The translations under genes and the position numbers were made by a program. A stretch of 64,000 bases of DNA, taken from NCBI RefSeq assembly GCF_056746865.1, contig NZ_CM163382.1, one strand, 5' to 3'. Each line of letters begins with the position of its first letter. Position 1 is the stretch's first letter. This document shows, piece after piece, positions 497 to 46,799 of this stretch. Below the pieces are notes generated by a model. The model had not been told where the DNA came from. It made no database searches and saw nothing but the letters and a program-made list of their open reading frames with translations.

Positions 497-1639
497 TTAA
501 TCCATTAACGGAAACCAGCCAGTTCCTTTCGATGCCTGAATTTGATCCCATAGTTTATCCGGAATGGTTAATTCAGGAACAAGTTGTGGATTAAGGGTTG
601 TTTGAATTTCATGGCTTCTACCTGATTCAGCTAAAGTCACCCATTCTGGATTTATCACCAGCCCTTTACCGATCGCAACAAGTGGCAGGCCAGTGGAAAT
701 TGCTTCTTGAGCCTGAGACGGTGTGCGTATTTTACCTGCAGCGATTACCGGCACTCTGCCTGCAATATGATTTAAAATCAATTCAATAGTTCGGGGGCCA
801 TTTGGCGACTCAACAGGGTAGCTATCGTTAATACTGACCAGCGAGGTATGTATATACGAAATACCGGATGCAATGAGCCGATCAAGGAGTTTATAAGTAT
901 CCTCTATCCGCAGCCCCCCTGTTGCAGATTCTTCAGGAGATATTCTGTAACCGATGGCAAAGGGCTTTGTCGCATATTCATAGACTACATTTTTTACTTC
1001 CTGTAATACGGCCAGCGGGAATCGCATACGTCTTTCGAGATCTCCTCCCCATCGGTCATTACGCTGGTTAAATAGAGGGGAGAAGAAATTCTGTAGAAGG
1101 AATCCGTGCGCACCATGAAGTTCAATGCCATCAAAACCTGCTTTAATCGCCCTTTTTGTGACATCTCCGAATGCTCTAATGGTTTCCTGAATTTCGTTTT
1201 CAGTCATTTCCCTGCTTTGTACCACTCTCTTCATAAAGTCACCAGATTTTACGCTTGATGCGCTGGCACTAATAACATCGTTATTTGGTACAAGCTCCGG
1301 GATGGCTTTATTACCGGCGTGGAAAATCTGCAAAATAGCCGGAGCACCGCCACTTTTGGCTGCCGCTGCTAACTTTTCAAGGCTGTTAATGAAACGGTCG
1401 TCATACGCGGCAAATTCATGAGTAAACCCAATGCCGCTTGGCGTGACATAGGTACATCCTGTTATTACTAAACCAACATTTTGTGAGCGACGTTTATAAA
1501 ATTCGAGTTCTTGCTCAGAGATGGTTCCATCAGGATTCGCTGACCAGGTCGTCATAGGAGCCATAACGATACGATTACGTAGCTTTATTTTTTCTGTCAG
1601 CATAAAAGGAGAAAACAATGATGGGTGTTTATTTGTCAT
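497..1639 (-). CDS. NADH:flavin oxidoreductase, Old Yellow Enzyme family (380 aa)
   Basis: ORF with OYE-type TIM-barrel motifs (GIELHGAHGFLLQNFFSP, RNDRWGG); recognition from memory of the family, no search run. Confidence 0.7.
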   Translation of the reverse strand: MTNKHPSLFSPFMLTEKIKLRNRIVMAPMTTWSANPDGTISEQELEFYKRRSQNVGLVITGCTYVTPSGIGFTHEFAAYDDRFINSLEKLAAAAKSGGAPAILQIFHAGNKAIPELVPNNDVISASASSVKSGDFMKRVVQSREMTENEIQETIRAFGDVTKRAIKAGFDGIELHGAHGFLLQNFFSPLFNQRNDRWGGDLERRMRFPLAVLQEVKNVVYEYATKPFAIGYRISPEESATGGLRIEDTYKLLDRLIASGISYIHTSLVSINDSYPVESPNGPRTIELILNHIAGRVPVIAAGKIRTPSQAQEAISTGLPLVAIGKGLVINPEWVTLAESGRSHEIQTTLNPQLVPELTIPDKLWDQIQASKGTGWFPLMD

Positions 1640-1883
1640 AACAATACCTCAAATGTTTATCTGATTTTGATGCGTATGTTTTAACTGGTTAGTTGTTGCC
1701 AGCTTTGGAACCAAGGTTTATGGCTTTATTTATAATTCCTTCAAAGGGTTTCTAATAATCTTAATAATTGAGTTGCTGCTTTTTTGTTTCTTTAATGAAA
1801 TTTCTTTTTGAGTAATTTTATTATTGTTGTGTAGTCAATAAAGGATAAATGTCAGGGAGATAAGGAATCTCCCTGTAAGATTA

Positions 1884-2804
1884 TTACAAATGTGTTTTAT
1901 AAAAAGGAATTAATTTATCGAGTGCCTGTTTCACAGGTTCTGGCTTATCATACAGGTCGTAATGTGAATAACCTTCAACCACGACCAGCTCTTTATGTTT
2001 TGAGGCAGCGCGGCCAATAATTTCGCAGCCGTCACGGTAGGCACCAAATGCGCCCACTCTATCGCCCACCACAACCATTATTGGTTGAGTTAACAGGACT
2101 TCTGCAAGATGAAATGCATCCCAACCCACGGCAACAGTCTGATGTGAGAATAGCGAACGATTTACCCCATTAGGTGCACAGCCTCGTGGCGAACGATAAT
2201 ATTCTGTGGCTTCAAAAAGGTCTATTTCTGTTAATCCCGCTTCAAGAGCTGCATCCGGAGAAGAGGGGAGTAAATCATCTACGCGAAGTTTTGCGCCGTT
2301 AGCTTCGTCTGTTCTTTGTTGCGCCATTGCTTCGAGTGCTCCGATAGGATTAAACGCTGTAAATCCCTCACGCATAAGACGCCCGTAGTTTGCACCCGTG
2401 ACAGTACCAATAGCTTTAATTCGACGTTCTGTCATTGCGGCATTAATGGCATATCCACCTCCACCACAAATACCCAGTACACCAATACGCCCGGCATCAA
2501 CGTAAGGTAAGGTGGTAAGGTAATCAACGACAATGCTGAAGTCTTTTACTCGCATTGTTGGATCTTCCAGATAACGCGGTTCTCCACCGCTGCTTCCCTG
2601 AAAACTGGCATCAAAAGCAATGACGATAAAGCCAGCTTTTGCCAGGGCGGCACCATACACACTACCCGATGTTTGTTCTTTGCAGCTTCCAATTGGATGG
2701 GCGCTGATAATGGCAGGATACTTTTTTTCACTATTAAAATCGTCAGGGAAATAGATATCAGCAGCTATATCCCAGTAAGTATGTTTTATCGAAACAGTTT
2801 TCAT
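1884..2804 (-). CDS. alpha/beta hydrolase, dienelactone-hydrolase-like (306 aa)
   Basis: ORF with nucleophile-elbow-like GICGGGGYA and C-terminal His region typical of alpha/beta-fold hydrolases. Confidence 0.6.
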   Translation of the reverse strand: MKTVSIKHTYWDIAADIYFPDDFNSEKKYPAIISAHPIGSCKEQTSGSVYGAALAKAGFIVIAFDASFQGSSGGEPRYLEDPTMRVKDFSIVVDYLTTLPYVDAGRIGVLGICGGGGYAINAAMTERRIKAIGTVTGANYGRLMREGFTAFNPIGALEAMAQQRTDEANGAKLRVDDLLPSSPDAALEAGLTEIDLFEATEYYRSPRGCAPNGVNRSLFSHQTVAVGWDAFHLAEVLLTQPIMVVVGDRVGAFGAYRDGCEIIGRAASKHKELVVVEGYSHYDLYDKPEPVKQALDKLIPFYKTHL

Positions 2805-2960
2805 TTCAAGCTCCGGGGAATTGCCTAAACAGATTTAAATATCATTTCTATTATCCGCAACTGGCATTCGTGTTCATGTCGAGAACGGCGTAATAGTATG
2901 ACTTGTATTGGTTATCATCAATGGTCTAATATCTATCACAGTGTTAAGTTAAGGTTTACA

Positions 2961-3887
2961 ATGATGAAAATAGAGCCTTCAATTTTGCCTTCTCTTGCCT
3001 GGTTTGCGCTGATTGTTCGTGCCGGCAGTTTTTCCAGAGCCGCTTCTGAAATGGGTATTACGCGGGCCGCATTGTCCCAGAATTTAAAATCTCTTGAGGA
3101 ACGTCTTAACACCAAGCTGATATACCGTACGACCCGCAATATGTCGCTTACTGAGGAAGGACAGCGTCTGTATGAAGTGCTGGTGTCGGCTTTGGGGCAA
3201 ATTGATGATGCTTTGAAAGATGTTGGTGATACCCAACTTGAACCTACAGGCCTGTTGAGAATAAATTCCTCCCGTGTTGCAGCACGGATGCTTGTTGAGC
3301 CTCATATTGGCGAGTTTCTTACTCGTTACCCCAAAACAAAGATAGAACTCATTATGGATGACGGTTTATCTAACATTATTGCGGACGGCTGTGATGTGGG
3401 CATACGTCTTGAGCAAGGACTGGATGAGCATATGACTGCCATTCCTGTTTCTCCGCTTATTAAACTGGTTACTGTGGCATCGCCAGATTATTTAAAAGAG
3501 CACGGTATTCCTGAAACGCCTCAGGAACTGAGTAACCATAATTGCCTTCGGTTGCGGCATAAAAGTAGTGGTGCACTCTCTGCATGGGAGTTTTCTAATG
3601 TTGCGGGGGGTAATGAAGAGTTCGAAATAGAGGTTTCAGGTAAGTATATTTCTAATGATGACGAAAGCATGATACGAATGGCGCTGAATGGAACGGGTAT
3701 CATTCAACATCTGGATTTTGCAATCGCTGAACATATCAATGCGGGCAAGTTACAGCCGATTCTTGAGGATTGGGCTGTTTCATTTCCTGGATTTTATATT
3801 TATGTTTCATCACGGGTGAGAATGCCCTCTAAAGTTCGTGCTTTTATTGATTTTATGGTGGAGAAAAGAGTAAAACTCGAAAATTGA
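2961..3887 (+). CDS. LysR-family transcriptional regulator
   Basis: N-terminal LysR HTH (SFSRAASEMGITRAALSQNLKSLEERLNTKL) plus substrate-binding domain; start trimmed to MMKIEP within the track ORF 2898..3887; divergent from the hydrolase gene. Confidence 0.7.
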   Translation: MMKIEPSILPSLAWFALIVRAGSFSRAASEMGITRAALSQNLKSLEERLNTKLIYRTTRNMSLTEEGQRLYEVLVSALGQIDDALKDVGDTQLEPTGLLRINSSRVAARMLVEPHIGEFLTRYPKTKIELIMDDGLSNIIADGCDVGIRLEQGLDEHMTAIPVSPLIKLVTVASPDYLKEHGIPETPQELSNHNCLRLRHKSSGALSAWEFSNVAGGNEEFEIEVSGKYISNDDESMIRMALNGTGIIQHLDFAIAEHINAGKLQPILEDWAVSFPGFYIYVSSRVRMPSKVRAFIDFMVEKRVKLEN

Positions 3888-4042
3888 TGATATGTGTAAT
3901 TGATGGTTGCTCTGGGCGAATATCGGTAAGAGGAATAACGTAATCATTAGGACGCGTTTACATAATAAACTTTCTGATAATTAATACTTATTTTCTATAC
4001 GGCCATAATATCAATTATCATTATCACCGGTAATGTGGTTAA

Positions 4043-6918
<2,876 letters not shown>

Positions 6919-7468
6919 TTATCGTTCATGAGAAGCATAACGTAAAGGGAAGAGCTCGATTAGACGGCAGGATTTGTCAGGGGTTATGAACGAAATTCAT
7001 AAATCTGCTTGAGTGTTGCGATGAGTCGTGCAAGTTCGATATCCCTGCAATTCACAGTCTGATGAAGAAAAATGAATATCCATAAAAAATATATTGGTTT
7101 ATCCTGGTGTATATACCTACTTCGACGTATTCCCAATAGCGATTAATTAAAGACAGGTCATTATTATTCACTCTTAATAATGAATTATTCACTGCCCGCA
7201 GAGTAAGAAATATAACTTAAGTATCTATTTAATAACTTGCACAAAAAGCTAAATTTTCACCAATAAATAAAAATATAATCCCGCGCCCAACCACCTGATG
7301 AGTGGCTACAGACACTGGATATATTAGGTGGCGGTGTACTTTCTTACATAAAGGTATTTCCTTTTCTGCGGAAAAGGAAATCGGGGATTTCCCGGTTTTT
7401 CTGACAAGCAGACGCCACTATTTGTGTCTGCCTATGTTCGTTAATTCGTTCATCAGGAAATTATCTCA

Positions 7469-10400
7469 ATGTCACGTTATAAAACAGGTCATAAACAACC
7501 ACGATTTCGTTATTCAGTTCTGGCCCGCTGCGTGGCGTGGGCAAATATCTCTGTTCAGGTTCTTTTTCCACTCGCTGTCACCTTTACCCCAGTAATGGCG
7601 GCACGTGCGCAGCATGCGGTTCAGCCACGGTTGAGCATGGAAAATACCACGGTAATTGCAGATAATAATGTGGAGAAAAATTTCGCGTCGTTTGCCGCAA
7701 ATGCCGGGACATTTTTAAGCAGTCAGCCAGATAGCGATGCGACACGTAACTTTATTACCGGAATGGCCACCGCTAAAGCTAACCAGGAAATACAGGAGTG
7801 GCTCGGGAAATATGGTACAGCGCGCGTCAAACTGAATGTCGATAAAGATTTCTCGCTGAAGGATTCTTCGCTGGAAATGCTTTATCCGATTTATGATACG
7901 CCGACAAATATGTTGTTCACTCAGGGGGCAATACATCGTACAGACGATCGTACTCAGTCAAATATTGGTTTTGGCTGGCGTCATTTTTCAGGAAATGACT
8001 GGATGGCGGGGGTGAACACCTTTATCGACCATGATTTATCCCGTAGTCATACCCGCATTGGTGTTGGTGCGGAATACTGGCGTGATTATTTGAAATTGAG
8101 CGCCAATGGTTATATCCGGGCTTCTGGCTGGAAAAAATCGCCGGATGTTGAGGATTATCAGGAACGCCCGGCGAATGGCTGGGATATTCGTGCTGAGGGC
8201 TATTTACCCGCCTGGCCGCAGCTTGGCGCAAGCCTGATGTATGAACAGTATTATGGTGATGAAGTCGGGCTGTTTGGTAAAGATAAACGCCAGAAAGACC
8301 CGCATGCTATTTCTGCCGAGGTAACCTATACACCAGTGCCTCTTCTGACACTGAGCGCCGGGCATAAGCAGGGCAAGAGTGGTGAGAATGACACTCGCTT
8401 TGGCCTGGAAGTTAACTACCGAATTGGCGAACCTCTGGAAAAACAACTCGATACAGACAGCATTCGCGAGCGTCGAATGCTGGCAGGCAGCCGCTATGAC
8501 CTGGTTGAGCGTAATAACAACATCGTTCTTGAGTACCGCAAATCTGAAGTAATCCGTATTGCTCTGCCTGAGCGGATTGAAGGTAAGGGCGGTCAGACAC
8601 TTTCCCTGGGACTTGTGGTCAGCAAAGCAACTCACGGACTGAAAAATGTGCAGTGGGAAGCGCCGTCATTACTGGCTGAAGGTGGCAAAATTACCGGTCA
8701 GGGTAGTCAGTGGCAAGTAACGCTCCCGGCTTATCGTCCAGGCAAAGACAATTATTATGCGGTTTCAGCGATTGCCTACGATAACAAAGGCAATGCCTCG
8801 AAACGTGTGCAGACAGAAGTGGTTATTAGCGGAGCTGGTATGAGCGCCGATCGTACGGCGTTAACGCTTGACGGTCAGAGCCGTATTCAAATGCTTGCTA
8901 ACGGTAATGAGCAAAAACCGCTGGTGCTGTCTCTGCGCGACGCCGAGGGCCAGCCAGTCACGGGCATGAAAGATCAGATTAAGACTGAACTAACCTTCAA
9001 ACCGGCTGGAAATATTGTGACTCGTACCCTGAAGGCCACTAAATCACAGGCAAAGCCAACACTGGGTGAGTTCACCGAAACTGAAGCAGGGGTGTATCAG
9101 TCTGTCTTTACTACCGGAACGCAGTCAGGTGAGGCAACGATTACTGTTAGCGTTGATGACATGAGCAAAACTGTCACTGCAGAACTGCGGGCCACGATGA
9201 TGGATGTGGCAAACTCCACCCTGAGCGCTAACGAGCCGTCAGGTGACGTGGTTGCTGATGGTCAGCAAGCCTACACGCTGACACTGACAGCGGTGGACTC
9301 CGAGGGTAATCCGGTGACGGGAGAAGCCAGCCGCCTGCGACTTGTTCCGCAAGACACTAATGGTGTAACCGTTGGTGCCATTTCGGAAATAAAACCAGGG
9401 GTTTACAGCGCCACGGTTTCTTCGACCCGTGCCGGAAACGTTGTTGTGCGCGCCTTCAGCGAGCAGTATCAGCTGGGCACATTACAACAAACGCTGAAGT
9501 TTGTTGCCGGGCCGCTTGATGCAGCACATTCGTCCATCACCCTGAATCCTGATAAACCGGTGGTCGGCGGTACGCTTACGGCAATCTGGTCGACAAAAGA
9601 TGCCTATGACAACCCTGTGACCAGCCTCACGCCGGAAGCGCCGTCATTAGCGGGTGCCGCTGCTGTAGGTTCTACGGCATCGGGCTGGACAAATAATGGT
9701 GATGGGACGTGGACTGCGCAGATTACTCTCGGCTCTACGGCGGGTGAATTAGAAGTTATGCCGAAGCTAAATGGACAGGATGCGGCAGCAAATGCGGCAA
9801 AAGTAACCGTGGTGGCTGATGCGTTATCTTCAAACCAGTCGAAAGTCTCCGTCGCAGAAGATCACGTAAAAGCCGGCGAAAGCACAACCGTGACGCTTAT
9901 TGCAAAAGATGCACATGGCAACGCTATCAGTGGTCTTTCGTTGTCGGCAAGTTTGACGGGGACCGCCTCTGAAGGGGCGACCGTTTCCAGTTGGACCGAA
10001 AAAGGTGACGGTTCCTATGTTGCTACGTTGACTACAGGCGGAAAGACGGGCGAGCTTCGCGTCATGCCTCTCTTCAACGGCCAGCCAGCAGCCACCGAAG
10101 CCGCGCAGTTGACGGTCATCGCTGGAGAGATGTCATCAGCTAACTCTACGCTTGTTGCGGACAATAAGACTCCAACGGTTAAAACGACGACGGAACTCAC
10201 CTTCACCGTGAAGGATGCGTACGGGAACCCGGTCACCGGGCTGAAGCCAGATGCACCAGTGTTTAGCGGTGCCGCCAGCACGGGGAGTGAGCGTCCTTCA
10301 GCAGGAAGCTGGACAGAGAAAAGTAATGGGGTCTACGTGTCGACCTTAACGCTGGGATCTGCCGCGGGTCAGTTGTCTGTGATGCCGCGAGTGAACGGCC

Positions 10401-11722
10401 AAAATGCCGTTGCTCAGCCACTGGTGCTGAATGTTGCAGGTGACGCATCTAAGGCTGAGATTCGTGATATGACAGTGAAGGTTAATAACCAACTGGCTAA
10501 TGGACAGTCTGCTAACCAGATAACCCTGACCGTTGTGGACAGCTATGGTAACCCGTTGCAGGGGCAAAATGTGACGCTGACCCTGCCGAAAGGTGTGACC
10601 AGCAAGACGGGGAATACAGTAACAACCAATGCGGCAGGTAAAGCGGATATTGAGTTGATATCAACCGTTGCAGGGGAACTTGAAATCGCGGCCGCGGTGA
10701 AAAACTCTCAGAAGACGGTCACGGTGAAATTCAACGCGGATGCCAGCACCGGTCAGGCAAACCTGCAGGTTGACACCGCCGTTCAAAAAGTGGCAAACGG
10801 CAAAGATGCCTTTACGCTGACGGCGACCGTTGAGGATAAAAACGGTAACCCTGTTCCAGGCACTCTGGTGACCTTTAATCTGCCCCGAGGTGTCAAGCCG
10901 CTTACTGGCGATAATGTCTGGGTGAAAGCCAACGATGAGGGGAAAGCAGAGTTGCAGGTGGTTTCCGTGACTGCCGGAACCTATGAGATCACGGCGTCGG
11001 CAGGAAATGACCAGCCTTCGGATGCGCAGACTATAACGTTTGTGGCCGATAAGGCGACCGCAACCGTCTCCGGTATTGAGGTGATTGGCAACTATGCACT
11101 GGCGGATGGCAAAGCCAAACAGACGTATAAAGTTACGGTGACTGATGCCAATAACAACCTGTTGAAAGATAGCGAGGTGACGCTGACTGCCAGCCCGGCA
11201 AATTTAGCTCTGGATCCCGATGGGACGGCGAAAACTAATGAGCAAGGGCAGGCTATTTTCACCGCCACGACCACTGTCGCAGCGAAATATACACTCACGG
11301 CGCAAGTGAGTCAGACCAACGGTCAGGTATCAACGAAAACTGCCGAATCTAAATTCGTCGCGGATGATAAAAACGCGGAGCTCACCGCATCATCTGATGT
11401 GCAATCGCTGGTGGCGGATGGGAAATCGACTGCGAAGCTGGAGGTTACCCTGTTCTCGGCAAATAACCCTGTTGGGGGGAATGTGTGGGTCGACATTGAG
11501 GCTCCGGAAGGAGTGACGGAGAAGGATTATCAATTCCTGCCGTCGAAAAATGACCATTTCGTGAGCGGAAAAATCACGCGTACATTTAGTACCAGCAAGC
11601 CTGGTGTCTATACGTTCACATTTAACGCCCTGACCTATGGCGGGTACGAAATGAAGCCAGTGACGGTGACCATAACCGCGGTGGATGCCGATACGGCAAA
11701 GGGCGAGGAGGCGATGAAGTAA
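7469..11722 (+). CDS. eaeH: intimin/invasin-family outer-membrane adhesin (inverse autotransporter), 1417 aa, apparently intact
   Basis: N-terminal signal and beta-barrel region followed by many tandem bacterial Ig-like (Big) domains, including recurring GELEVMPKLNGQ / GELRVMPLFNGQ / GQLSVMPRVNGQ blocks; position next to ykgA/rcl matches eaeH. Confidence 0.8.
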   Translation: MSRYKTGHKQPRFRYSVLARCVAWANISVQVLFPLAVTFTPVMAARAQHAVQPRLSMENTTVIADNNVEKNFASFAANAGTFLSSQPDSDATRNFITGMATAKANQEIQEWLGKYGTARVKLNVDKDFSLKDSSLEMLYPIYDTPTNMLFTQGAIHRTDDRTQSNIGFGWRHFSGNDWMAGVNTFIDHDLSRSHTRIGVGAEYWRDYLKLSANGYIRASGWKKSPDVEDYQERPANGWDIRAEGYLPAWPQLGASLMYEQYYGDEVGLFGKDKRQKDPHAISAEVTYTPVPLLTLSAGHKQGKSGENDTRFGLEVNYRIGEPLEKQLDTDSIRERRMLAGSRYDLVERNNNIVLEYRKSEVIRIALPERIEGKGGQTLSLGLVVSKATHGLKNVQWEAPSLLAEGGKITGQGSQWQVTLPAYRPGKDNYYAVSAIAYDNKGNASKRVQTEVVISGAGMSADRTALTLDGQSRIQMLANGNEQKPLVLSLRDAEGQPVTGMKDQIKTELTFKPAGNIVTRTLKATKSQAKPTLGEFTETEAGVYQSVFTTGTQSGEATITVSVDDMSKTVTAELRATMMDVANSTLSANEPSGDVVADGQQAYTLTLTAVDSEGNPVTGEASRLRLVPQDTNGVTVGAISEIKPGVYSATVSSTRAGNVVVRAFSEQYQLGTLQQTLKFVAGPLDAAHSSITLNPDKPVVGGTLTAIWSTKDAYDNPVTSLTPEAPSLAGAAAVGSTASGWTNNGDGTWTAQITLGSTAGELEVMPKLNGQDAAANAAKVTVVADALSSNQSKVSVAEDHVKAGESTTVTLIAKDAHGNAISGLSLSASLTGTASEGATVSSWTEKGDGSYVATLTTGGKTGELRVMPLFNGQPAATEAAQLTVIAGEMSSANSTLVADNKTPTVKTTTELTFTVKDAYGNPVTGLKPDAPVFSGAASTGSERPSAGSWTEKSNGVYVSTLTLGSAAGQLSVMPRVNGQNAVAQPLVLNVAGDASKAEIRDMTVKVNNQLANGQSANQITLTVVDSYGNPLQGQNVTLTLPKGVTSKTGNTVTTNAAGKADIELISTVAGELEIAAAVKNSQKTVTVKFNADASTGQANLQVDTAVQKVANGKDAFTLTATVEDKNGNPVPGTLVTFNLPRGVKPLTGDNVWVKANDEGKAELQVVSVTAGTYEITASAGNDQPSDAQTITFVADKATATVSGIEVIGNYALADGKAKQTYKVTVTDANNNLLKDSEVTLTASPANLALDPDGTAKTNEQGQAIFTATTTVAAKYTLTAQVSQTNGQVSTKTAESKFVADDKNAELTASSDVQSLVADGKSTAKLEVTLFSANNPVGGNVWVDIEAPEGVTEKDYQFLPSKNDHFVSGKITRTFSTSKPGVYTFTFNALTYGGYEMKPVTVTITAVDADTAKGEEAMK

Positions 11723-11755
11723 TATTAAGAATATGAAAGTAACATTCTAATAAAC

Positions 11756-11788
11756 AATAATGGCGTTGACATCTTCAACGCCATTATT
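11756..11788. terminator. hairpin (14-bp stem, 5-nt loop) between convergent eaeH and the AraC-type gene; likely bidirectional terminator
   Basis: aataatggcgttga-catct-tcaacgccattatt read directly, followed by tatt. Confidence 0.45.
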
Positions 11789-11842
11789 TATTGAATTGCC
11801 TGACAGTAGTCTCGTTATAAATTCATGTAAACATCGCTACAG

Positions 11843-12733
11843 CTAAACCGGGCGAACGGGGATAAAAATTTCGCAAACAATGTTATTGCTATCAATTTCG
11901 ACGAAGTTTTCATTGTAATAAAATCGCTCAATATCACTGCCGTTCACTCTGGCTAACCCCCTGGCAGGTAATTCCATCAGATAGAGGTTTCGCGCCCATT
12001 CAGGGTAGTGCTCCCACTCACCTTCATAGCGGAAAGAGGCATACAGTCCTCGGTTAATTGTCCACTCTTTCGACATCTCTGAATCGGTTTGTTTGCATAC
12101 CGTACCGGCAAAAGTTTCAACTGTGAGCAAATCGACCGATTTTGTTGACGGTTCGAATGTGGAGACGAAATAGATATCCGTCTTAAAATTCTTCATACAT
12201 CTGGCTAAATGATGACGTCGCAGTTTGACTTCTTCATCCGGTGATTTATTCGATACTTCAATATCATATTTAAATGAATTGCCAAAAATAGGTGTCTCAG
12301 GAAAGTTGACTAATCTACACTCCGTCTTTTGCTGTTGACGTATTAAAAAAGAAGGGAAGATATTTGCGAGATCCCAATAATCACGGTGGCGGTATTCACG
12401 GGGAGAGCAGCCGAATAACTTTTTAAATTCGCGGCTGAATGACTGCTGTGAGTCAAAATGTAAAGAGAGTGCAATATCAAGCATAGATTTCGCGGTGAGT
12501 CGGACAAGAATGGCGGCACGACAAAGCCTTCGTTTGCGAATGTATTCTCCCAAAGGCACATGCATGAAATTTCGGAACAGAAGCTGGATGTTGCGTCTGC
12601 TGTAGCCAGATTTCTGTGCGATATCTTCGATTGAAATAGGGTGCTCAAGATTGCACTCAATCCACTCCAGGAGCTGCTGTAGAATCTTCTGCCTGATCAT
12701 CACATTCTCCGTTAATTCTTTGTCATATCGCAC
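11843..12733 (-). CDS. ykgA: AraC-family regulator with C-terminal GyrI-like effector domain (up to 296 aa; true start may be internal)
   Basis: AraC-type HTH near the N-terminus (IEDIAQKSGYSRRNIQLLFRN, FDSQQSFSREFKKLFGCSPREYR); symbol assigned from position between eaeH and rclC, moderate certainty. Confidence 0.6.
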   Translation of the reverse strand: MRYDKELTENVMIRQKILQQLLEWIECNLEHPISIEDIAQKSGYSRRNIQLLFRNFMHVPLGEYIRKRRLCRAAILVRLTAKSMLDIALSLHFDSQQSFSREFKKLFGCSPREYRHRDYWDLANIFPSFLIRQQQKTECRLVNFPETPIFGNSFKYDIEVSNKSPDEEVKLRRHHLARCMKNFKTDIYFVSTFEPSTKSVDLLTVETFAGTVCKQTDSEMSKEWTINRGLYASFRYEGEWEHYPEWARNLYLMELPARGLARVNGSDIERFYYNENFVEIDSNNIVCEIFIPVRPV

Positions 12734-13521
12734 ATTTTCGTTATGTCCTGGGCCTTAAGTGTATCAAAAACAGCAAGTCCCAAGGCAAAAGCACTGATAG
12801 CGTCTGCTTCATTGCCCCAAAAATAGAGAGGTTTCAGTCCTACATTATTAATGAATTTTTTGCATAAGTGATATCAAAATCCACATACTAATTTGAGGTT
12901 ACGTTTTAACGTAGACTCATTGTTCATACCTAATGGAGGGACTGACAGTGGAATTTTCCGTATTAAGTAACAATCTGAAAATGCCGATGATGGGATTTGG
13001 TGTTTTTCAGGTTACCGATAAAGACGTGTGCAAACAGTCAGTGTTGAATGCTATCCGCACGGGTTATCGACTCATCGACACTGCAGCGGTATACGGTAAT
13101 GAAGATGCCGTCGGTGAAGCCGTTCGTGAAGCTATATCTGAAGGTTTATGTACCCGAGATGAGTTATTTATAACGTCTAAATTGTGGGTGCAGGATATGT
13201 TGAATCAGGATACGGCAAAAGCAGGTATTGAAGCATCATTAAAAAAATCGGGACTAGAATACTTCGACCTCTATTTATTGCACCAGGCTATGCGCGATTA
13301 TTTCAGTGCGTGGCGTGCACTCGAAGATGCCTATGAAGAGGGCAAATTAAAAGCAATTGGGGTTTCCAATTTCTATCCTCATGTTCTGGCGAACTTTTGT
13401 GAAACGGTAAGAGTTAAACCGATGGTCAACCAGGTCGAGTTGCATCCCTATTTTGCCCAACCAGAGGCGCTGGCAACCATGAAGTATTATAACGTGCAGC
13501 CTGAAGCATGGGCTCCGTTAG

Positions 13522-14716
<1,195 letters not shown>

Positions 14717-15175
14717 TTAGGTGGTGGACGACATAAACCCTTTGAAAATAATCTGCTTCAGAGTATTGCAGATGCCCATCAAAAATCGATTTCTCAAGTC
14801 ATTCTGCGTTGGAATATTCAACGGGGAGTGGTCGTTATTCCGAAATCGACACATCAACAGCGTATCGAAGAAAATTTTGCTATCTGGGATTTCTCACTGA
14901 CAGAGAAAGAAATGGCACAAATTAGTTCGCTTGATTTGGGTTATGTTGGGGAGTCGGTAAAACATTTTAATCCTGAATTTGTTCGTGGTTGTCTTGCTGT
15001 AAAAATACATGATTGATATTAATCATGTATTTTACCTGAGACGACAAGAATCTTTTAACAGGGGAGTGATATTGATCTTCACTCTGTCATATCTCCGGTA
15101 ATATGGCGTCAGGCTTCATCATCAGAAAGGGGGCCTGACGCCTGAAAAAGTGAACAACAGACAGTGTTCGGATTA

Positions 15176-46161: not shown

Positions 46162-46433
46162 AAAAATTAATAAATACCCTGTGGTTTAACATATTAACTT
46201 CGCTCTCCACTTAACTTTTTAGTTAAGGAGAGCGAAATAATATCAAAGTAGCAGTAAAACCTATAACGTAAATTCAAATTGTTAAATTAACTCCCTCCAG
46301 TACACAATACTTCACACGTTAGTTATGAGCGATTTCTGATAGTAGACTGGCCCCCTGAATCTCCAGACAACCAATATCACTTAAATAAGTGATAGTCTTA
46401 ATACTAGTTTTTAGACTAGTCATTGGAGAGCAG

Positions 46434-46799
46434 ATGATTGATGTCTTAGGACCGGAGAAACGCAGACGGCGTACTACACAGGAAAAGATCGCTATTGTTC
46501 AGCAGAGTTTTGAACCGGGAATGACGGTCTCCCTTGTTGCCCGGCAACACGGTGTGGCAGCCAGCCAGTTATTTCTCTGGCGCAAGCAATACCAGGAGGG
46601 AAGTCTTACTGCTGTGGCCGCAGGAGAGCAGGTCGTTCCTGCCTCTGAACTTGCTGCTGCCATGAAGCAGATTAAAGAACTCCAGCGCCTGCTCGGCAAA
46701 AAAACGATGGAAAATGAACTCCTTAAAGAAGCCGTTGAATACGGGCGTGCAAAAAAGTGGATAGCGCACGCGCCCTTATTGCCCGGGGATGGGGAGTAA
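46434..46799 (+). CDS. insC: IS2 OrfA (InsC), 121 aa
   Basis: Matches recalled InsC ([29 protein letters not shown]...). Confidence 0.9.

Follow-up and report, generated by a model that had tools for sequence, protein, structure and literature searches.

The window analysed here is a stretch of 64,000 nucleotides (contig NZ_CM163382.1 of RefSeq assembly GCF_056746865.1), in which one long gene lies together with its upstream intergenic region and a downstream hairpin:

6904..7468, + strand: upstream intergenic region, 565 nt, AT-rich (GC content, sequence reading)
7469..11722, + strand: fdeC (eaeH) coding sequence, 1417 codons plus stop (ORF list, nucleotide identity to annotated fdeC)
7469..7609, + strand: predicted Sec signal peptide, aa 1-47 (hydropathy scan and inspection)
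7694..8539, + strand: inverse autotransporter (IAT) beta-barrel and linker, aa 76-357 (Pfam PF11924, PDB barrel matches)
8540..8872, + strand: domain D1, aa 358-468, barrel-proximal and D00-like (match to the intimin fragment PDB 6tqd)
8873..9523, + strand: D2, aa 469-582, and D3, aa 583-685 (jackhmmer 469-577 and 583-680; Pfam Big_1/Invasin_D3)
9524..10465, + strand: D4, aa 686-788; D5, aa 789-890; D6, aa 891-999 (PDB 4e9l, motif)
10466..11719, + strand: D7, aa 1000-1096; D8, aa 1097-1201; D9, aa 1202-1308; D10, aa 1309-1417 (jackhmmer)
11756..11788, no strand assigned: 33-nt hairpin (terminator scan, 14 pairs on the - strand)

On inspection, the open reading frame starts with ATG, runs for 1417 amino acids without internal stops, and carries one stop only, at its end. 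The chance of 1417 consecutive sense codons is about 3e-30 by our own arithmetic. The frame is real and lies, uninterrupted, exactly where the preliminary description had placed it. Its DNA is 100% identical to the RefSeq-annotated fdeC of the uropathogenic E. coli (UPEC) strain 118UI (WP_000092574.1), with which it shares the locus, and the start and stop chosen by RefSeq for that identical gene are those of the window ORF; this confirms the earlier assignment to an eaeH-type adhesin. The encoded protein shares 92.6% amino acid identity with FdeC of CFT073 (1415 residues compared), and the fdeC alleles compared (CFT073, O157:H7 SS52, ETEC TW10590, E138, and G5) range from 92.4 to 96.2% identity with the ten-domain layout in all of them, alongside a published within-species identity of >91% (PMC3324786). 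The crystallised FdeC chain (PDB 4e9l) aligns to aa 595-1008 with an E-value of 1.2e-248 and, by our own count, 17 mismatches in 414 residues (~96% identity). High full-length identity and a conserved chromosomal position, the marks of an FdeC/EaeH orthologue, are thus both found, and the window ORF is, on sequence grounds, almost certainly an intact allele of fdeC (eaeH), a chromosomal E. coli adhesin of the type Ve inverse autotransporters.

The aldo/keto reductase gene on the - strand ends at 6903 and is divergent from fdeC. The 565 nt between the two genes are presumed to be the promoter or regulatory region of fdeC; the GC content is 0.36 at 7000-7499 versus about 0.50-0.55 in the flanks, and a Shine-Dalgarno-like AGGA is located at 7455-7458. 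A sigma-70 consensus scan returned no site upstream of the fdeC ATG, and its total number of matches was at shuffle expectation. On the other side, the hairpin at 11756..11788 (AATAATGGCGTTGACATCTTCAACGCCATTATT, then TATT on the + strand) sits between the stops of fdeC and of a convergent AraC/Rob-like regulator gene (11843-12733, - strand) and looks like a bidirectional terminator. The neighbours of fdeC, namely the ykgR-side reductase/regulator cluster before it and the AraC-type regulator with rclCBA-rclR after it, are conserved in 118UI, CFT073, O157 SS52, E138, G5, TW10590, and a K-12-type strain, and this setting has already been published (PMC3324786). An IS5 element adjoins the locus in the window.

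The sequence features by which inverse autotransporters are recognised are present in the window protein. The predicted signal peptide, judged by inspection only, combines a basic N-region with a hydrophobic core around aa 22-45, where hydropathy peaks at 1.9, and an A-R-A preceding Q48, before which cleavage would be expected. The barrel is matched by Pfam IAT_beta (PF11924) at aa 76-350 (E 1.1e-108; score 363.5 bits, cut-off 22.3), so that the inverse-autotransporter N-terminal region proposed earlier is well founded. C-terminal to the barrel follows an Ig-superfamily (Big) passenger of ten domains (aa 358-1417), in which Pfam finds nine Invasin_D3 and six Big_1 stretches, the best Big_1 stretch being aa 1000-1089 (D7). 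Comparison of the protein and the gene with themselves by blastp and blastn gave the diagonal alone, with no off-diagonal match, and jackhmmer self-profiles were therefore used to delimit the domains. This separated nine Ig-like domains (D2-D10), and D1, whose residues 358-466 match PDB 6tqd (E 7.3e-13), brings the total to ten. The preliminary count of at least 8 to 10 Big-type repeats agrees with what Pfam, jackhmmer, and PDB 6tqd give, and the Pfam annotation as a whole supports an inverse autotransporter with Ig-like repeats. Ten Big domains have likewise been published for FdeC (PMC4943183). The recurring (G)EL-x-VMP-x-NGQ blocks that had been noted do exist, but as G[EQ]LxVMPxxNGQ in three copies only (aa 759, 861, and 967); they are restricted to D4-D6, a sub-family with 37-43% mutual amino acid identity, and are absent from the rest of the array. 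Residues 678-991 of FdeC have been solved as three Ig-like domains (Nesta 2012, PMC3324786).

By homology and published work, the Sec signal peptide would deliver FdeC to the periplasm, where the N-terminal 12-stranded beta-barrel is expected to insert into the outer membrane with assistance from BAM/TAM and the C-terminal rod of ten Ig-like domains would be threaded outward through it. Once on the surface, the passenger is predicted to bind collagens and epithelial cells and to promote aggregation and biofilm formation. For CFT073 FdeC, insertion into the outer membrane and display of the passenger on the surface, dependent on BAM/TAM, have been published; assembly was reported to be enhanced by TAM, and passenger fragments were protease-accessible on intact cells (PMC4943183). 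Binding to collagens I, III, V, and VI, aggregation, kidney colonisation, and induction on host contact have also been described for FdeC (PMC3324786). The gene would normally be silenced, with control by H-NS, temperature, and host contact as published: expression is temperature-dependent (PMC11143625), and regulation by H-NS and temperature is attributed to Easton 2014, as cited in PMC4943183 and PMC11143625. Because deletion of fdeC raised adhesion in one APEC study (PMC11143625), the label "adhesin" misses some of the reported phenotypes. The function of the window allele is carried over from alleles that are 92-96% identical, and its surface display and its binding to collagen and epithelial cells are predictions from the published ones.

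The characterised forms of FdeC/EaeH (ECOK1_0290 of the ExPEC strain IHE3034, CFT073, ETEC H10407, and the K-12 pseudogene eaeH) all represent one gene at one chromosomal locus, that of the window ORF; the characterised alleles have an architecture identical to that of the window protein (signal peptide, IAT barrel, ten Ig-like domains), from which they show allelic differences only. Since 2010-2012, FdeC/EaeH has received its name, part of it has been crystallised, its function has been studied, and it has been assessed as a vaccine antigen against ExPEC. The copy in the window is thus already known, an ordinary intact copy of a well-studied gene. As RefSeq already annotates the exact protein, it has little value as a discovery; its practical value lies in annotation, as an intact fdeC with ten Ig-like domains.

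Among complete E. coli genomes, fdeC was matched in 5078 of 5426, 4585 of these with at least 80% of the gene, and it is full length in ~85%. The window allele belongs to a minority class, with 144 of 5083 matching records at least 99% identical to it. The earlier statement that the gene is truncated by an insertion sequence in K-12 was correct: the K-12-type laboratory strain ME8067 retains fdeC nt 1-876 only, next to IS3, and the remainder is absent and has not moved elsewhere. This pseudogene state was published in 2012 (PMC3324786). The interest that the earlier description implied in a gene intact here though broken in K-12 was overstated and has to be corrected, since an intact fdeC is the norm in E. 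coli and not an exception to K-12.

Across six alleles, dN/dS is 0.04-0.44 in every region of fdeC, which indicates that the gene is under purifying selection, strongest on the barrel. This bears on the idea that fdeC, although intact in sequence, might be a silent relic here that is never expressed and is decaying as in K-12. FdeC has indeed been reported as undetectable in standard laboratory conditions and repressed by H-NS (PMC4943183, PMC11143625), and the locus draws insertion elements and deletions (IS3 in K-12, ISEc52 in FDAARGOS_1255, and the adjoining IS5 in the window). The constraint throughout the gene argues against a relic, as do the preservation of full-length fdeC in most complete genomes and the published induction by host contact and temperature (PMC3324786, PMC11143625), and we regard it as very unlikely.

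Divergence among the alleles is unevenly distributed over the protein. D7-D10 form the distal, most allele-variable stretch of the passenger, with 71-96% amino acid identity to the five other alleles compared with 98.6-99.6% in the barrel, and a dN/dS of 0.21-0.44. Mean dS reaches 0.51 in D10 versus 0.05-0.15 in D2, D5, and the barrel, and in D8-D10 and D4 the identity between alleles drops to 71-77%. It is conceivable, though rather doubtful, that D8-D10 and D4 are deeply diverged allelic cassettes that are exchanged between E. coli lineages by recombination and specify different ligands or antigenic types. If so, the minority allele in the window could differ from IHE3034 and CFT073 FdeC in binding specificity or vaccine cross-reactivity. 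Since D4 and D8-D10 are also where the window allele departs most from the characterised CFT073/IHE3034-type alleles (75-87% amino acid identity), its ligand specificity could differ from theirs. The divergence of the distal domains bears on vaccine coverage, as already noted in the literature.

The preliminary description had further suggested that internal duplication could support repeat-number variation. This would make the tandem Ig repeats a contingency locus, in which recombination or slippage alters the number of domains and hence stalk length or antigenicity. In its favour, ten homologous domains stand in tandem in the passenger, members of the inverse-autotransporter family differ widely in how many Big domains they carry (PMC4943183), and natural internal deletions exist, namely 528 nt in LR-58-1 and 656 nt in IAL7250. 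Contingency genes are marked by near-identical tandem repeats and by alleles that differ in whole units, and neither was found for fdeC. No two Ig domains are more than 43% identical in protein or 52% in DNA sequence, and the longest exact DNA repeat inside the gene is 16 nt. Tandem Repeats Finder (minimum score 30) reported no arrays between 7000 and 12000, and a direct-repeat search gave only imperfect matches of 15-29 nt, such as chance or remote homology between domains would produce. This degree of similarity was judged insufficient for RecA-mediated recombination or slippage. Lengths are constant as well: of 60 alleles taken at even spacing, 56 have a passenger of 3366-3378 nt, a variation of at most 12 nt, and all six reference alleles encode 1415-1418 aa with ten domains each.

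The two deletions join non-equivalent domain positions through 2-nt or short imperfect microhomology. That of LR-58-1, in frame and seen in 4 of 5426 genomes, was considered as the loss of a domain unit and rejected, as it joins position ~16 of D1 to position ~81 of D2 with 2-nt homology. That of IAL7250 connects, by local junction alignment, position ~7-12 of D7 to position ~28-34 of D9; its reading as an in-register loss of two domains was likewise rejected, because the junction is out of register and the gene is frameshifted. With diverged domains, constant lengths, and out-of-register deletions, repeat-number variation is not borne out, and the contingency-locus reading is largely refuted and highly improbable. 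As a further correction to the earlier picture, this array does not behave like one whose copy number varies; the domains of fdeC are ancient duplicates that form a stalk of fixed length and offer no substrate for present-day copy-number change.

Intimin (Eae) of EPEC/EHEC is, like FdeC, of type Ve and has a homologous barrel (PDB 4e1s matches aa 113-357, E 8.8e-71) and a D00-like first Ig domain (6tqd). It has fewer Ig domains than the ten of FdeC. In contrast to the window protein, it carries a periplasmic LysM domain and a C-terminal lectin-like, Tir-binding domain, and it is encoded in the LEE. Invasin (InvA) of Yersinia pseudotuberculosis also has a barrel homologous to that of FdeC (PDB 4e1t matches aa 113-357, E 1.9e-82), the Ig domains of FdeC match Invasin_D3/Big_1 and PDB 1cwv, and the structure of FdeC D4-D6 superimposes on invasin (Nesta 2012, PMC3324786). 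Its integrin-binding D4-D5 lectin-like superdomain is absent from FdeC, the stalk of FdeC is longer, and the ligands reported for FdeC are collagens, not beta-1 integrins (PMC3324786). About 75 aa, including the signal peptide, precede the barrel in the window protein; Pfam matches at E <=0.01 included neither LysM nor Intimin_C, and no lectin-like C-terminal domain was detected by Pfam or the self-profile. That the window encodes a Tir-binding intimin or integrin-binding invasin proper instead of the FdeC type deserves practically no credit, because the NCBIfam intimin and Inv N-terminal models, despite strong matches (E 2e-114 and 3e-91) and the shared barrel homology, score far under their curated cut-offs (intimin_all 383 vs 1400 bits, Inv 306 vs 710 bits), the neighbours are reductases and regulators and not LEE genes, and the last domain, D10, occupies the place of the lectin-like tip with a match to the Big_1-like self-profile (iE 6.8e-13).

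The gene fdeC (synonym eaeH) lies at window positions 7469..11722 (+) and is read from an ATG start through 1417 codons to a single, terminal stop codon. The RefSeq annotation of the identical gene in the urinary isolate 118UI has the same start and stop, so the intact single ORF of the preliminary description stands. With 3 stop codons in 64, the chance probability of so long an ORF is ~3e-30, which marks it as a real gene. A megablast search of 5426 complete E. coli genomes returned the 118UI gene as a full-length, 100% identical match, annotated as "fdeC: inverse autotransporter adhesin FdeC" (WP_000092574.1); RefSeq already contains this exact protein. Window and 118UI are collinear with 99.98-100% identity, the sole exception being one extra IS2 in the window. 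Judged by its sequence, the gene encodes a type Ve inverse autotransporter of the FdeC/EaeH orthologue group and carries all defining features of that group that can be tested on sequence.

A long Sec signal peptide is predicted, on inspection, from a basic N-terminal region followed by a hydrophobic core (aa ~22-45) and by A-R-A ahead of Q48. The inverse-autotransporter N-terminal region that had been proposed was confirmed by Pfam (PF11924, aa 76-350, E 1.1e-108) and by structural matches of aa 113-357 to the invasin barrel 4e1t (E 1.9e-82) and the intimin barrel 4e1s (E 8.8e-71). In the passenger, Pfam reports nine Invasin_D3 and six Big_1 stretches, and a jackhmmer self-profile search delimited nine Ig-like domains (D2-D10), to which the barrel-proximal D1 is added.

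Ig-like domains of the FdeC passenger, numbered from the barrel outward (D2-D10 by jackhmmer self-profile)
D1, aa 358-468, barrel-proximal Ig-like domain
D2, aa 469-582
D3, aa 583-685
D4, aa 686-788
D5, aa 789-890
D6, aa 891-999
D7, aa 1000-1096
D8, aa 1097-1201
D9, aa 1202-1308
D10, aa 1309-1417

The total of ten agrees with the first estimate of at least 8 to 10 Big-type repeats and with the ten Big domains given by Heinz et al. (PMC4943183). The intimin fragment 6tqd is matched by aa 358-466. For aa 595-1008 the match is to chain 4e9l (E 1.2e-248), where a hand count on the alignment gives 17 mismatches over 414 residues; 4E9L is "FdeC region B" in Heinz et al. 2016 (PMC4943183). A crystal structure of FdeC residues 678-991 comprises three Ig-like domains (Nesta et al. 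2012, PMC3324786).

The NCBIfam models for intimin, IatC, Ilp, SinH, YchO, and Inv all gave strong N-terminal matches with scores far under their curated cut-offs; this makes FdeC related to those proteins, but a member of none of the groups. Pfam reports neither a LysM domain nor a C-terminal lectin-like domain, which sets FdeC apart from both intimin and invasin. An identity with either was rejected given these absences, the subthreshold scores, and the lack of an LEE context.

It had further been proposed that internal duplication could support repeat-number variation, which is not supported. The recurring (G)EL-x-VMP-x-NGQ blocks are present, but the motif G[EQ]LxVMPxxNGQ occurs just three times (aa 759, 861, and 967), confined to D4-D6. 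The closest domain pair, D4/D6, shares 43% protein identity, no pair exceeds 52% codon-aligned DNA identity, and the longest exact repeat inside the gene is 16 nt. TRF at a minimum score of 30 found no tandem arrays, and a repeat finder returned nothing beyond short imperfect matches. From these values, homology between the repeats is judged too low for homologous recombination or slippage.

Allele lengths point the same way. The window allele and five reference alleles (CFT073, O157:H7 SS52, E138, G5, and ETEC TW10590) all encode the same ten domains in 1415-1418 aa; indels among them are limited to a single residue near aa 1310 and two C-terminal residues. The passenger spans 3366-3378 nt in 56 of 60 alleles sampled evenly along the ranking; the four exceptions are one ISEc52 insertion, two remnants, and one internal deletion. 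In LR-58-1, 528 nt are deleted in frame (product of 1242 aa, WP_061361607.1; 4 of 5426 complete genomes), joining D1 position ~16 to D2 position ~81 with a junction homology of 2 nt. This variant, otherwise intact at L004 625-4353 (LR-58-1, NZ_AP027553.1; junction at L004 ~1741), lacks aa ~373-548, most of D1 and D2, and would keep a chimeric partial Ig domain beside the barrel. In IAL7250, which came from the first search, a 656-nt deletion connects D7 (positions ~7-12) with D9 (positions ~28-34) through an imperfect microhomology (AATAAC..CAAC) and causes a frameshift, with the ORF ending at 1012 aa. Neither deletion represents a domain-unit change, as both end at non-equivalent domain positions.

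The window allele is of a minority class (at least 99% identity in 144 of 5083 matching records, most of which are 90-95% identical), and its product shares 92.4-96.2% full-length aa identity with the five reference alleles. By region, this identity is 98.6-99.6% in the barrel, mostly 97-100% in D2, D3, and D5, 87-97% in D4, 88-92% in D7, 71-96% in D8, 81-92% in D9, and 76-94% in D10. Mean dS between alleles is only 0.05-0.15 in D2, D5, and the barrel, and reaches 0.29 in D8 and 0.51 in D10 (maximum 0.89); the high synonymous divergence is located at window 11393-11719 (D10) and 10757-11392 (D8-D9). Because of this very high distal dS, fdeC appears to be a mosaic whose allelic segments are old or imported, with somewhat relaxed purifying selection apparently acting on the distal ones. 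Nei-Gojobori dN/dS is 0.04 in the barrel and 0.21-0.44 in D7-D10; these region-averaged values do not suggest positive selection on the distal domains. The pattern is not new, since Heinz et al. coloured their model of FdeC for conservation among subtypes, over a range of 95% to 60% (PMC4943183), and a 2024 study compared variants of APEC and non-pathogenic strains (PMC11143625).

Intact fdeC is the normal state among complete E. coli genomes: 5078 of the 5426 match the gene, 4730 match its passenger part (nt 877-4254), and 4585 retain at least 80% of it. Subtraction leaves 348 genomes with the 5' stub only and a further 348 without any match. In the K-12-type laboratory strain ME8067 and in TG1, the match is limited to nt 1-876. 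In ME8067 this stub is an annotated pseudogene directly followed by IS3, which bears out the proposed truncation at an IS in K-12; the pseudogene was reported earlier by Nesta et al. (PMC3324786). Blastn mapping showed that window 8345-12095 (the remaining 3.4 kb of fdeC and the 3' end of the AraC-type gene) is missing from ME8067, which makes this a deletion associated with IS3 rather than a simple insertion.

For close alleles, published work shows that FdeC is surface located and induced on host-cell contact, recombinant FdeC-AB binds epithelial cells and collagens I, III, V, and VI, over-expression leads to aggregation, and protection was obtained in a UTI model (PMC3324786). Its assembly is enhanced by TAM, and proteinase K cleavage of the cell-associated protein yields a barrel fragment of ~50 kDa and a passenger fragment of ~100 kDa (PMC4943183). 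The window allele, with its order of signal peptide, barrel, and Ig-domain passenger and its orthology to FdeC, would by analogy use the same export pathway and have the same adhesive role as close alleles. H-NS and temperature control of fdeC has been described (Easton 2014, as cited in PMC4943183 and PMC11143625), and expression is temperature-dependent in APEC (PMC11143625). GC content is 0.47-0.55 along the gene and falls to 0.36 in the 565-nt upstream intergenic region, an AT-richness consistent with putative H-NS silencing.

Two features lie directly downstream:
11756-11788, 33-nt hairpin in the gap between the stop codons of fdeC and the convergent regulator gene
11843-12733, AraC/Rob-like regulator gene, convergent to fdeC

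The hairpin looks like a putative bidirectional terminator. From the ykgR side, the gene order is a flavin oxidoreductase, an alpha/beta hydrolase, two LysR regulators, two aldo/keto reductases, fdeC, the AraC/Rob-like regulator, an aldo/keto reductase split by IS5, rclCBA-rclR, ykgEFG, ykgH, betABIT, pdeL, yah genes, prpRBCDE, codBA, and cynRTSX. Upstream of fdeC, a reductase/regulator block of 6.3 kb (window ~589-6917) is present in the window and 118UI and absent from K-12-type, IAL7250, LR-58-1, and G5 backgrounds, where a short 'hypothetical protein' remnant is found instead. It is a presence/absence polymorphism adjoining the adhesin gene, in agreement with Nesta et al. (PMC3324786), who describe a variable locus of "up to three regulators and five reductases/hydrolases". 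The IS5-split reductase gene spans window 12933-14800 (N-terminal part 12933-13544, transposase ORF 13554-14570); the insertion is also annotated in 118UI, and the gene is annotated as uninterrupted at this position in CFT073, O157 SS52, E138, and TW10590.

Elsewhere in the window, a complete IS2 (1331 bp, 46343-47673; TnpA 46389-46799, TnpB 46757-47662) with imperfect terminal inverted repeats lies between yahK and yahL, flanked by a duplicated 5-bp target site (GATAG, 46338-46342 and 47674-47678). Since this IS2 is missing from the otherwise near-identical 118UI, it is probably a recent insertion. Tandem arrays of Rfam naRNA4 (RF02564, +), known repeated elements of E. coli, with a spacing of ~94 nt, are found at 53226-53576 (4 copies) and 58350-58990 (7 copies), which by position in the collinear 118UI are the prpB-prpC and prpE-codB intergenic regions. 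In 118UI, to which alone the call applies, yahN (a LysE-family transporter gene) is an annotated pseudogene with an internal stop (L010 33778-34449), corresponding to window ~49230-49900.
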